Assembly: GCF_017348835.2 (NCBI RefSeq)
Contig: NZ_CP071375.1
Source of the DNA: Escherichia coli
GTDB taxonomy: Bacteria; Pseudomonadota; Gammaproteobacteria; Enterobacterales; Enterobacteriaceae
DNA: 64,000 nt
Strand: one strand, 5' to 3'
Positions 54,769 through 59,851 of the stretch are shown here, piece by piece. The notes under the pieces are model-generated. The model made no database searches. It was not told where the DNA came from and saw only the letters and a program-made list of their open reading frames with translations. The position numbers and the translations under genes are program-made. Positions within the stretch are counted from its first letter, which is position 1. Every line of letters starts with the position of its first letter.

Positions 54769-56187
54769 TCAGACGCCGATATTTCTCAACTTCTCGCCTG
54801 CCATCAGTTTGCGTTCGATATGTTCCAGGGTGACATTTTTGGTTTCCGGAATGAGCCAGAAAGTGATGCCCACAAACGCAATGTTCAGCGCAGTGTAGAG
54901 CCAGAACGTACCGGCAGCGCCAATGCTGTCGAGCAGCGTCAGGAAGGTCGCGCCGATAATCATATTCGACACCCAGTTCGTGGTGGTCGAACAGGTAATA
55001 CCGAAATCGCGGCATTTCAGCGGCTGAATTTCAGAGCACAGGATCCACACCACTGGCGCGGCGCTCATCGCATAACCGGCAATACACATCATCGTCATGC
55101 CAACAGAGAGCCAGGACAAGCCACTGGAAGCCGTACCGTTATCAAACTGCATCAGGCAATAGCCCAGCACCAGAGTGCCTAACGCCATCACGCTGAAACC
55201 AATTTTCAGAGCCGGTTTACGACCTGCTTTATCTACCGTAAACACCGCAATGAAGGTCGCGAACATAAAGGTCAGCCCCACGACCAGAGTCGCAATCATC
55301 TGTTGTTCTGTGGTCGTAAAGCCCGCCATTTTGAAGATACGCGGCGCGTAGTACATGATGATGTTCATACCGGTAAACTGCTGCATCGCCTGCAACAACA
55401 TACCGAGAAACACAGCACGACGGACGTTACGGTTGATCTTAAACAGTGCCCAACCGCCCTGTTTTAACTTCAGGCTTTCACGAATTTCGTTGAGTTCTTC
55501 TCGCGCTTTTTCCGACGTATCGCGCAGCATACGCAACACTTCTTCCGCCTCAATATGACGCCCCTTTTCCGCCAGCCAGCGCGGGCTATTTGGCAGGAAG
55601 ACCACCAGAATAATCAGCAGGACTGCTGGTAAAGCAAGAACCCCCAACATTGCGCGCCAGTTACCGCTATAACTGAACGCTGTATCGGATAAAAACGCCA
55701 GCACAATGCCGAGTGTGACCATCAACTGGTACATGCTGATCATCTTACCGCGAACGTTTTCACTTGCCATTTCAGAAAGATACAGAGGAGCGGTGTAAGA
55801 CGCGATCCCGACAGCAATGCCCAGCACCACACGAGCGGCGATTAACATCTCTACGCTGGTCGCAAAAGCGGACCCTATCGAACCGAGTACAAACAGGATG
55901 GCCCCCGCCATCAGGCTGTATTTGCGCCCCAGGCGGAACGACAGCCAACCATTAAACAGCGCACCAATTGCTGCACCGAGCATCATGCTACTGACCACCC
56001 ATTCCTGCAAACGACTGGTCAGCACAAAGTGATCGGTAATGAACGGCAACGCTCCGGCGATTACGCCGATATCAAGACCAAATAACAATCCTGCGACCGC
56101 AGCAGCTACCGAAACAAACATATTCATACGCCGCGTATCCCGCAAAGAACGTGGCGTTAAAGCAGATTCCGTATTGATAGTAACCAT
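54769..56187 (-). CDS. araE: Arabinose:H+ symporter (MFS sugar porter), 472 aa
   Basis: Start at 56187 gives [30 protein letters not shown]; 472-aa product matches AraE. Confidence 0.95.
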
Positions 56188-56501: not shown

Positions 56502-57263
56502 TTAACGCGCCAGCCAACCGCCATCCACGGCAATGGTATAACCATTCACATAATCTGAAGCGCTGGAGGCAAGGAACACTACCGGCCCCATCAGATCACT
56601 CGGCAGTCCCCAACGGCCAGCTGGAATGCGGTCGAGAATTTCCGCGCTACGTTGTTCATCTGCCCGTAGTTGTTGAGTATTGTTGGTCGCCATGTAACCC
56701 GGAGCTATCGCATTAACATTAATGTTGTGTTTAGCCCATTCGTTCGCCATCAAACGCGTCACGCCCATCACACCGCTTTTTGATGCGGTATAAGAAGGCA
56801 CACGGATCCCGCCCTGGAAGGAGAGCATTGACGCGATATTGATAATCTTGCCGCCATTGCCTTGCGCGATAAAGTGTTTCGCCGCTGCCTGAGACATGAA
56901 GAATACGCTCTTGATATTCAGGTTCATGACATCGTCCCAGTCTTTTTCGCTGAACTCGAGAGCATCTTCGCGGCGAATCAATCCGGCGTTATTCACCAGG
57001 ATATCAATATGACCAAACTCAGCTACCGCGCGATCCAGCAGTGCTGGAATGCCATCAATCTTTCGCAGATCGGCGGTCAGGCTTAAAAAACGACGCCCCA
57101 GCACCGTGACCTGCTTGATGGTTTCAGTCGGTTCAACGATGTTAATGCCAACAATGTCACAGCCCGCTTGCGCCAGCCCCAACGCCATCCCCTGGCCCAG
57201 TCCAGTATCACAACCAGTGACGACCGCAACTTTACCTTCGAGAGAAAATGCACTTAAAATCAT
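56502..57263 (-). CDS. kduD: 2-dehydro-3-deoxy-D-gluconate 5-dehydrogenase (SDR), 253 aa
   Basis: 253-aa short-chain dehydrogenase ORF (GxxxGxG, YxxxK); matches KduD. Confidence 0.95.
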   Translation of the reverse strand: MILSAFSLEGKVAVVTGCDTGLGQGMALGLAQAGCDIVGINIVEPTETIKQVTVLGRRFLSLTADLRKIDGIPALLDRAVAEFGHIDILVNNAGLIRREDALEFSEKDWDDVMNLNIKSVFFMSQAAAKHFIAQGNGGKIINIASMLSFQGGIRVPSYTASKSGVMGVTRLMANEWAKHNINVNAIAPGYMATNNTQQLRADEQRSAEILDRIPAGRWGLPSDLMGPVVFLASSASDYVNGYTIAVDGGWLAR

Positions 57264-57292: not shown

Positions 57293-58129
57293 CTAGCGCA
57301 AATCTTTAACGGCCACATGGTCCATATCATCAAAGACCTGGTTTTCACCGACCATGCCCCAGATAAAGGTATAAGCTTTGGTTCCGACGCCGGAATGGAT
57401 CGACCAGCTCGGGGAGATCACCGCCTGCTCGTTATGCATTACAATATGACGCGTTTCTTGCGGCTGCCCCATCATGTGGAAAACGCAGGCGTCATCATCC
57501 ATATTGAAATAGAAATAAACTTCCATCCGGCGCTCGTGAGTGTGACACGGCATGGTGTTCCACAAGTTACCTGGAGCCAGCTCCGTCAGCCCCATACTCA
57601 ATTGGCAGGTTTCCAGCACATCCGGGACAAAATATTTGTTAATTGTGCGACGGTTACTGGTGAGGTTATCGCCTAACGTGACTGGAGATACTTCGTCCGG
57701 TGTGACTTTTTTGGTGGGATACGTCGTATGCGCAGGTGCGCAATTGTAATAAAACTTTGCCGGAGTGGCGGTATCAATACTGGCAAAGACAACTTCTTTT
57801 GCACCTTTACCAACATACAGGGCGTCGCGGTGACCGATTTCATAGCATTGACCATCGACAGTAATCGTACCGGCACCGCCAATATTGATAACACCTAACT
57901 CGCGACGTTCAAGGAAATAGCTTACGCCGAGTTGTTTACCAACTTCCCCGCCAACGGAAACCGTTTTAGTTACCGGCATAATGCCGCCAACAATAATTCG
58001 GTCAATGTGGCTGTAAACCATGGTGTACTCATCGGCGACAAATACCTTTTCAACCAAAAATTCATTGCGCAGCCCTTGGGTATCCAGTGTTTTTGCGTGC
58101 GCACTGTGGATGCTCTGTCTTACGTCCAC
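57293..58129 (-). CDS. kduI: 5-dehydro-4-deoxy-D-glucuronate isomerase, 278 aa
   Basis: 278-aa ORF; matches KduI; 29 bp upstream of kduD. Confidence 0.95.
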
Positions 58130-58238
58130 ATCAACCTCCGATAATCAGTGAAGCGTGAAAATAGAAAACGATAGTGAAACACTGTTTCGTTTTCTCTATA
58201 AGGGGATGATATGCCCATGGGATAGGGTTTTCAATTAA

Positions 58239-58257
58239 AAATAAAACAATGTTTCAT
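58239..58257. promoter_or_regulatory. KdgR-type operator upstream of kduI
   Basis: Seen in sequence: AATAAAACAATGTTTCATT, a near-perfect palindrome about 110 bp upstream of the kduI start, fitting the KdgR box consensus AATRAAAYRNYRTTTYATT as I recall it. Confidence 0.55.
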
Positions 58258-58415
58258 TTTTAAGTTAAGGATTAAAAAAAGTGCAGTGTCGATCACGAAT
58301 ATGTCATGAGAATGGAAAAATCAGGGAGTCCTGAAAAGGTATGTCGACTCACCAGCCATCATTATTCAACAGATTAATGACGGCAGATATTTATCGGTAA
58401 AGAGGAAATGCAGAG

Positions 58416-59597
58416 CTACTCGTCACGTTCAATGGTCAATGCTACGCCCTGGCCCCCGCCGATACAAAGCGTTGCCAGTCCTTTGCGGGCATTACGTTTC
58501 ACCATTTCATGAACCAGAGAAACCAGGATTCGGCAACCGGAAGCGCCTATCGGGTGACCGAGTGCGATCGCGCCACCATTGACATTGACCCGACGCTCAT
58601 CCCATTCAAGCATCTTGCCAACCGAAAGCGCCTGTGCAGCAAACGCTTCATTCGCCTCGATAAGATCGACATCAGCCAACTGCCAGCCTACACGCTCCAG
58701 GCAACGGCGGGTCGCATACACCGGCGCAATTCCCATCAATGCCGGATCTACACCAACGCTGGCAAATGCGCGGATGCGGGCCAGCACGGGTAAATTCAAC
58801 GCTCGTGCTTTGGCTTCGCTCATCATCATTACCGCAGCTGCGCCATCGTTTATGGATGATGCATTACCCGCTGTCACAGAACCGAGACTATCAAATGAAG
58901 GATTTAAACGGGCTAAACCTTCTGCACTGGCGTCAGTGCGTGGCTGTTCATCGGTATCAACAACCAACGTCTGACCGTTACTTTGGGTCATTACCGGGAC
59001 GATCTCATCTTTAAATCGTCCGGCGTCAATCGCTGCACGCGCTTTTTGTTGCGAGCTAAGTGCATAAGCATCCTGCAACTGACGGCTGATGCCATATTCG
59101 CGAGCCAGATTTTCGGCGGTGACACCAATATGATAATCATTGAAGGCATCCCACAACCCATCGTGCACAAGACTATCAACCAACTGGCTATTGCCAAGCT
59201 GTGCACCGGTGCGGCTATCAGTCAGAACATGTGGTGCGCGGCTCATGTTTTCCTGGCCACCGGCGATGACAATATCAGCCTCGCCACACTGTATCGCCTG
59301 AGTAGCCAGATGCAGTGCTTTAAGCCCGGAACCGCAAACGTCATTAATAGTGATTGCAGAAACGCTATTAGGCAGACCACCTTTAATAGCCGATTGCCTT
59401 GCAGGATTCTGCCCTGCCCCTGCAGTCAACACCTGACCAAGAATCACTTCATCCACCGCATATGCAGGAACGCCGGTACGTTCTATTAACGCTTTCACGA
59501 CCAGGCTGCCAAGTTCCACGGCGGAATGACCCGCTAACGCACCACGAAAGCAGCCGATAGGTGTCCGTAACGCCCCGACAATCACAACGTCTTTCAT
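58416..59597 (-). CDS. yqeF: Thiolase-family acetyl-CoA C-acetyltransferase YqeF, 393 aa
   Basis: 393-aa thiolase ORF with catalytic Cys (NDVCGSGLKA) and C-terminal CIGGGQGVA motif; matches YqeF. Confidence 0.9.
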   Translation of the reverse strand: MKDVVIVGALRTPIGCFRGALAGHSAVELGSLVVKALIERTGVPAYAVDEVILGQVLTAGAGQNPARQSAIKGGLPNSVSAITINDVCGSGLKALHLATQAIQCGEADIVIAGGQENMSRAPHVLTDSRTGAQLGNSQLVDSLVHDGLWDAFNDYHIGVTAENLAREYGISRQLQDAYALSSQQKARAAIDAGRFKDEIVPVMTQSNGQTLVVDTDEQPRTDASAEGLARLNPSFDSLGSVTAGNASSINDGAAAVMMMSEAKARALNLPVLARIRAFASVGVDPALMGIAPVYATRRCLERVGWQLADVDLIEANEAFAAQALSVGKMLEWDERRVNVNGGAIALGHPIGASGCRILVSLVHEMVKRNARKGLATLCIGGGQGVALTIERDE

Positions 59598-59851
59598 CAC
59601 AACCTCGCACCAATTAACAGTGCAATAGTAAATGATTGTTAATTACAGTTATCTTAATTGTTTAAAAAAAGTGATTTTTATCACAAAGGAAATACGCCTG
59701 ACCAGCAGTCAGAGACATAACTGGCACGTAACGTTTGCAACCACTAACCCACCAATAGAGGGGTAGATAGGGCGTTAATCTCCCATACTTAACCTGGTTT
59801 ATGGTAAATTGCCCTCTATTTTGTTTAATTTGTAGATGATACGTTCAGATA

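Follow-up and report, generated by a model that had tools for sequence, protein, structure and literature searches.

Known KdgR-type operators and the kduI promoter

The KdgR boxes described in Dickeya dadantii and other gamma-proteobacteria are 21-bp AT-rich palindromes with a TGAAAC/GTTTCA core, located at promoters of the 2-keto-3-deoxygluconate (KDG) pathway, and the consensus of Rodionov 2000/2004, as quoted in PMC5559549, is AAATGAAACAnTGTTTCATTT. The kduI-kduD pair behaves as a member of this KDG/pectin regulon, being derepressed in kdgR mutants. Control of kduID by KdgR is already known from comparative-genomic prediction and from this derepression: kduD mRNA is increased in a kdgR mutant on Northern blots (PMC6958661), kduI and kduD are both overexpressed on kdgR deletion in an RNA-seq i-modulon decomposition (PMC6892915), and a link between loss of kdgR and derepression of kduI/kduD has also been reported in K. 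pneumoniae (PMC8612250). The kduI promoter is induced 7- to 54-fold by galacturonate or glucuronate (PMC3578941). One further paper (PMC2936295) deals with KdgR and edd only. Full-text searches found no paper in which the sequence of the operator described below (site A) is printed, and no direct KdgR-DNA binding data for its bases were found in the searchable literature.

The kduI promoter has also been reported as a target of PlaR (YiaJ), a paralogous IclR-family repressor, on the basis of a gSELEX peak and an in vitro gel shift. The PlaR box printed in that study is ATnTGAAACnnnGTTCAnTT, and kduD mRNA was raised in the plaR (yiaJ) mutant as well (PMC6958661). In addition, the promoter is listed as CRP-activated and is EMSA-positive for CRP (PMC8085971).

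Boxes of the same motif class lie upstream of the KDG transport and kinase genes of E. coli, kdgT and kdgK, which are classical KdgR targets. When the 21-bp pattern of the consensus was applied to the K-12 sequences, the kdgT box AAATAAAACAGCGTTTCAATT showed 3 mismatches and the kdgK box TAATGGAACACTGTTTTAATA showed 5; no box was found in the vicinity of eda at ≤5 mismatches. One half-site of the kdgT box is weakened to TAAAAC, and the kdgK box combines GGAAC with GTTTTA.

Genetic context of kduI and kduD

The 64-kb window, i.e. the whole stretch of DNA analysed, is derived from an E. coli chromosome. A 2.5 kb segment that includes the finding matches E. coli strain PE164 with 100% identity; the annotation, and with it the gene coordinates, was transferred from the record of that strain, and the segment is present in 5418 of the 5426 complete E. 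coli genomes. The kduI gene (57293-58129, minus strand), which encodes a 5-dehydro-4-deoxy-D-glucuronate isomerase, starts with GTG at 58129 and is followed after 29 bp by kduD (56502-57263, minus strand). Upstream of kduI is yqeF (58416-59597, minus strand), with its stop at 58416, and beyond it yqeG (59852-61081, plus strand). Positions 58130-58415 correspond exactly to the spacer between the kduI start and the yqeF stop, and its GC content of 36%, compared with 51% for the window, agrees with its earlier description as AT-rich. A Shine-Dalgarno sequence for kduI, GGAGG, was read from the sequence at 58135-58139 (minus strand) and is invariant in the alignment described below. The kdgR gene is not within the 64-kb window; it is found in 5424 of the 5426 complete E. 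coli genomes and is almost certainly present in the strain studied.

A KdgR-type palindrome in the yqeF-kduI spacer

A 21-bp KdgR-type operator, designated site A, was predicted at 58239-58259. It reads AAATAAAACAATGTTTCATTT on the plus strand and AAATGAAACATTGTTTTATTT on the kduI sense strand, and its centre (58249) is at -120 from the kduI start codon. The first-pass annotation had drawn attention to a near-perfect 19-bp palindrome at this position. The quoted string, AATAAAACAATGTTTCATT, is present but is located at 58240-58258, one base from the 58239-58257 originally given. Eight of its 9 arm pairs are complementary, and extension to the 21 bp of site A gives 9 of 10. The proposed fit to the KdgR consensus was also borne out, as 19 of the 20 specified positions of AAATGAAACAnTGTTTCATTT agree, and site A with its single mismatch is the best match among the kduI, kdgT and kdgK boxes (1 versus 3 and 5 mismatches). 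A motif scan for KdgR, the check suggested with the original observation, returned two matches at ≤3 mismatches in the 64-kb window where 0.01 would be expected, and both are in the yqeF-kduI spacer. No KdgR box was detected at this threshold in the kduI-kduD intergenic gap.

A palindrome in AT-rich DNA could arise by chance, or its only role could be that of non-specific AT-rich sequence, for example in an UP element or in the nucleation of H-NS. The low GC content of the spacer is compatible with this, as is an H-NS flag on the kduI/yqeF spacer (PMC3946193), and when the spacer alone was subjected to 5000 dinucleotide-preserving shuffles, palindromes of 21 bp in which 9 or more of the 10 pairs are complementary occurred in 62 of them (1.2%). 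However, the consensus match is not reproduced in this way: none of the 5000 shuffles contained a 21-bp sequence with ≤1 mismatch to the consensus, and only one contained a sequence with ≤3. Moreover, conservation is specific to particular bases, with those of TGAAAC...GTTTTA invariant in 78-79 of the 80 sequences compared below and those at the three central positions and in the flanks variable. Together, the shuffles and the base-specific conservation effectively refute this explanation, which we regard as extremely improbable, and the KdgR-type palindrome is real and not a product of chance.

The palindrome can be extended to 39 bp (58230-58268), but the outer arms are not conserved outside Escherichia and the extension was attributed to chance in AT-rich DNA. 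The short core TGAAAC-N3-GTTTCA, taken alone, has 3 matches in comparison with 3.1 expected. A sequence with one mismatch to this core, TGAAACCAATTTTCA, is found within araE (55194-55208) and is consistent with chance.

Promoter architecture

Only one sigma-70-like site was identified in the spacer by a promoter scan. It consists of a -35 hexamer, TTGAAA (58229-58234, minus strand), and a -10 hexamer, TATCAT (58206-58211, minus strand), separated by 17 bp, and matches the sigma-70 promoter at 10 of 12 positions. The same arrangement, TTGAAA-17-TATCAT, is listed for kduI in the RpoD holoenzyme genomic SELEX study of Shimada et al. (PMC3946193). From the promoter geometry we infer that transcription starts at 58199 (minus strand), a conserved A located 7 nt past the -10 hexamer.

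Relative to this +1, site A is centred at -50 and spans -60 to -40, which leaves 4 bp between it and the -35 hexamer. The second consensus match, designated site B and described below, spans +8 to +28. The two boxes therefore bracket the promoter, an arrangement that differs from Dickeya-type KdgR boxes. For simple promoter occlusion, a site centred at -50 is not in the classic position. The centres of the two sites are 67 bp apart, or approximately 6.4 helical turns, and this distance does not suggest in-phase looping.

Conservation of site A and the promoter

A KduI scan using one genome per species recovered 80 loci, in all of which KduI is at least 91% identical. One of these, in a metagenome-assembled genome labelled 'Deltaproteobacteria bacterium' (locus L009, JACZXR010000090.1), was the sole locus with a near-identical KduI that lacked the box. 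It was found to be a chimeric contig, as positions 541-1476 are kduI sequence of E. coli (99% identity to window positions 58149-57214) and positions 1-560 are unrelated DNA, joined to the E. coli part only 20 bp ahead of the start codon. MAG contamination or mis-assembly is the probable cause. L009 was excluded, leaving 79 usable loci, which together with the window make up the 80 sequences referred to throughout.

Every one of the 79 usable species loci has a TGAAAC-N3-GTTTTA box, located 102-127 bp before the start codon of kduI. The distance from the centre of this box (site A) to TTGAAA is exactly 15 bp in 80 of 80 sequences; TTGAAA is itself invariant and is followed after a 17-bp spacer by TAnnnT. 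A phylogenetic footprint constructed from a MAFFT alignment (-300 to +12) revealed a series of conserved islands, namely CGTGATC (58297-58291), site A, ATTGAAAAC (which includes the -35 hexamer), TAnnAT (the -10 hexamer), the A at 58199, the site B sequence AAAACGnAAC...GTTTC, and the Shine-Dalgarno sequence. Between these islands the spacer is otherwise diverged. The column containing the A at 58199 is approximately 90% or more conserved in this 78-species footprint.

The promoter-side half of site A is GTTTTA rather than GTTTCA in 78 of 80 sequences, a further difference from Dickeya-type boxes that is maintained across Enterobacteriaceae. Judged from the sequence comparison, this asymmetry is a conserved feature and not decay, and the apparent imperfection of the palindrome should be left as it is in motif work. 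The 80-sequence comparison could be used to seed a better KdgR matrix for Enterobacteriaceae.

Within E. coli, site A and the -35 and -10 hexamers are identical in 8 diverse strains. An exact-word megablast search found the 31 bp that include site A (58231-58261) to be identical in 5210 of 5426 E. coli genomes (96%). An A/G polymorphism at 58261, flanking site A, is seen in B2-type strains. The complete spacer of the strain studied is at least 99% identical to that of only 50 E. coli genomes and 95-99% identical to that of 5367. In the alignment of the 8 strains, the differences are located outside site A and the -35 and -10 hexamers and are clustered in site B and in the yqeF-proximal part of the spacer.

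A third KdgR-like box, TATCAAAACnnTGTTTCATTT, is found 240-370 bp upstream of kduI in loci L022, L023, L025, L043, L047, L063, L046 and L069. In Citrobacter werkmanii (L022) it is located at 1139-1159, past the terminator of a yqeF-like thiolase gene. This box is absent from E. coli.

A second box downstream of the predicted transcription start

The first-pass annotation treated a single palindrome as the operator. This stands for site A, but the second box had been overlooked. Site B (58172-58192; plus strand TAGTGAAACACTGTTTCGTTT) is a KdgR-like box with 3 mismatches to the consensus and is the sole other match in the window. It is centred at 58182, which is +18 from the predicted transcription start and -53 from the kduI start codon, and in the strain studied it has a perfect 13-bp core, TGAAACAnTGTTTC. 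At the level of the family, the consensus of site B is AAAaCGGAACnnnGTTTcg, found at the same place, and the half-sites are distinct, being CGGAAC...GTTTCG and not TGAAAC...GTTTCA.

The location of site B, downstream of +1 and inside the RNA polymerase footprint, is a classic one for a repressor, and it could be argued that site B is the main repressing operator and site A is auxiliary. The perfect core in this strain and the retention of a box at this place in most genera would fit such an arrangement. However, site B is the weaker match to the consensus (3 mismatches as opposed to 1) and in many genera differs from the Dickeya-type consensus at 5 or more positions. It is also variable within E. 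coli, with six polymorphic positions, some of them in the core, among the 8 diverse strains. The B2 strains carry GTTTTATTA in its place, and the 31 bp that include site B (58167-58197) are identical in only 3793 of 5426 genomes (70%) by exact-word megablast, compared with 96% for site A. A principal role for site B is consequently considered unlikely.

Site B is enclosed by a perfect 9-bp inverted repeat, AGAAAACGA/TCGTTTTCT (58163-58171 and 58187-58195). A further inverted partner of the left half of site B, GTTCCGTT or TCCGTT, occurs in several genera approximately 10 bp beyond the first, and could be a third half-site as an alternative to an RNA hairpin. An RNA element in the 5′ UTR over site B was considered and rejected. 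Though the E. coli hairpin has a z-score of -1.7, RNAalifold predicts no pairs in the 5′ UTR across 65 species, and the sole Rfam match in this region (E = 0.44) is a chance match.

Possible binding of KdgR and PlaR at the kduI boxes

The PlaR box ATnTGAAACnnnGTTCAnTT has a core that is near-identical to that of site A, but its second half is shorter (GTTCA), and the KdgR consensus is the better fit for site A. The two boxes might be mainly or jointly operators of PlaR, one version being that sites A and B have divided roles. Apart from the similarity of the box, the gSELEX peak and gel shift obtained with PlaR at the kduI promoter and the increase of kduD mRNA in the plaR mutant point in this direction, as do the distinct family-level half-sites of site B. 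On the other hand, kduD is derepressed in kdgR mutants too, and site A has one mismatch to the KdgR consensus but, by inspection, about 3 to the printed PlaR box in either orientation. The CGGAAC half-site is also within the range of KdgR-type variation, as the E. coli kdgK box likewise contains GGAAC; indeed, the weakened half-sites of the kduI region, TAAAAC and GGAAC, recur at the accepted targets kdgT and kdgK. We regard a main or joint role of PlaR at these boxes as possible but less probable, and tentatively assign them to KdgR.

The earlier conclusion that KdgR controls kduI-kduD in this strain agrees with the published derepression and with the fixed distance between site A and the promoter. 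It does not follow that the site is exclusive to KdgR: PlaR binds the kduI promoter region, has a similar box and on its loss derepresses kduD, so that KdgR may not be the only occupant. This overlap of KdgR and PlaR, which share a motif, is the one biological question touched by the analysis.

The upstream CGTGATC box

An additional conserved element, CGTGATC-N7-CA, is found at 58282-58297 (minus strand), with CGTGATC at 58291-58297. It resembles a CRP half-site and is centred at approximately -90.5. The CGTGATC sequence is nearly invariant across the family (78 Enterobacteriaceae species), and in 78 of 80 sequences the box has its centre upstream of that of site A by 40.5 or 41.5 bp. The distance is 40.5 bp in E. 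coli and 41.5 bp in most genera, corresponding to positions of about -90.5 or -91.5. The E. coli box, CGTGATCGACACTGCA, has mismatches at 4 of 10 positions of the CRP consensus TGTGA-N6-TCACA and so was not recovered in a scan that allowed ≤3. At that threshold the CRP scan is in any case uninformative, with 192 matches in the 64-kb window compared with 223 expected. From its sequence and position, the CGTGATC box may be the CRP site responsible for the reported EMSA result. Another sequence, AGTGATTTTTATCACA (59670-59685), in the divergent yqeF-yqeG spacer, has a single mismatch to TGTGA-N6-TCACA and is among the best CRP-like matches in the window.

The operators of ExuR and UxuR have a palindromic consensus of the AATTGGTATACCAATT type. 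No match to this consensus was found anywhere in the window at ≤3 mismatches.

Predicted mode of regulation

Site A is very probably the KdgR-type operator of the kduI-kduD sigma-70 promoter, which together with site B brackets the core promoter and represses kduID until KDG is available. The sequence match, its significance, the geometry and the conservation were obtained in this study. The promoter hexamers, the derepression in kdgR mutants, the induction by hexuronates and the binding of PlaR and CRP to the promoter region are taken from the papers cited above, and we infer the exact +1, the assignment of a protein to each box and the steric mechanism. KdgR is an IclR-family repressor of the KDG regulon, and site A is its predicted operator. 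A repressor dimer bound at site A would abut the -35 hexamer and occupy DNA needed by the C-terminal domains of the RNA polymerase alpha subunits or by an upstream activator. A second dimer, on the weaker site B inside the polymerase footprint, would block the path of the polymerase. KDG formed from galacturonate, glucuronate or pectin fragments would then release the repressor and allow kduID to be expressed.

CytR/CRP-type anti-activation promoters provide an analogy to the layout at kduI, though only to the layout. As in those promoters, the kduI repressor site is between a CRP-like box (at about -90.5) and the -35 region. However, kduI lacks a second CRP site at -41, and the CGTGATC box is only CRP-like, with 4 mismatches in E. 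coli. A more speculative proposal, to which we attach little weight, is that a rigid three-part module has been kept across Enterobacteriaceae, made up of CGTGATC at about -91, the asymmetric KdgR box at -50 and the second box at +18. Binding at -50 would in that case act mainly by CytR-like anti-activation, blocking the path between the alpha C-terminal domains and CRP; KdgR and PlaR would read the boxes differently, and GTTTTA would tune affinity or the choice of paralogue.

The strain thus carries a standard KdgR-controlled kduID promoter, and this in itself has little import beyond bookkeeping. What has been added here is the two-box layout with exact coordinates, the conserved CGTGATC box, the conserved asymmetry of site A and the conserved promoter layout.

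Other features of the spacer

A 13-bp imperfect inverted repeat is located at 58355-58384, 31 nt past the yqeF stop, and is not accompanied by a T-run. It is followed by a weak terminator-like hairpin with a T5 tail (58321-58334). This hairpin is polymorphic in E. coli, and read-through from yqeF into kduI is therefore possible. The spacer also includes a 23-codon ORF with an ATG start at 58306-58377, on the plus strand and antisense to kduI, which predicts the product MRMEKSGSPEKVCRLTSHHYSTD. A 23-aa intergenic microprotein encoded beside kduI in UPEC 536 has been predicted to interact with KduI (preprint PMC11188072).
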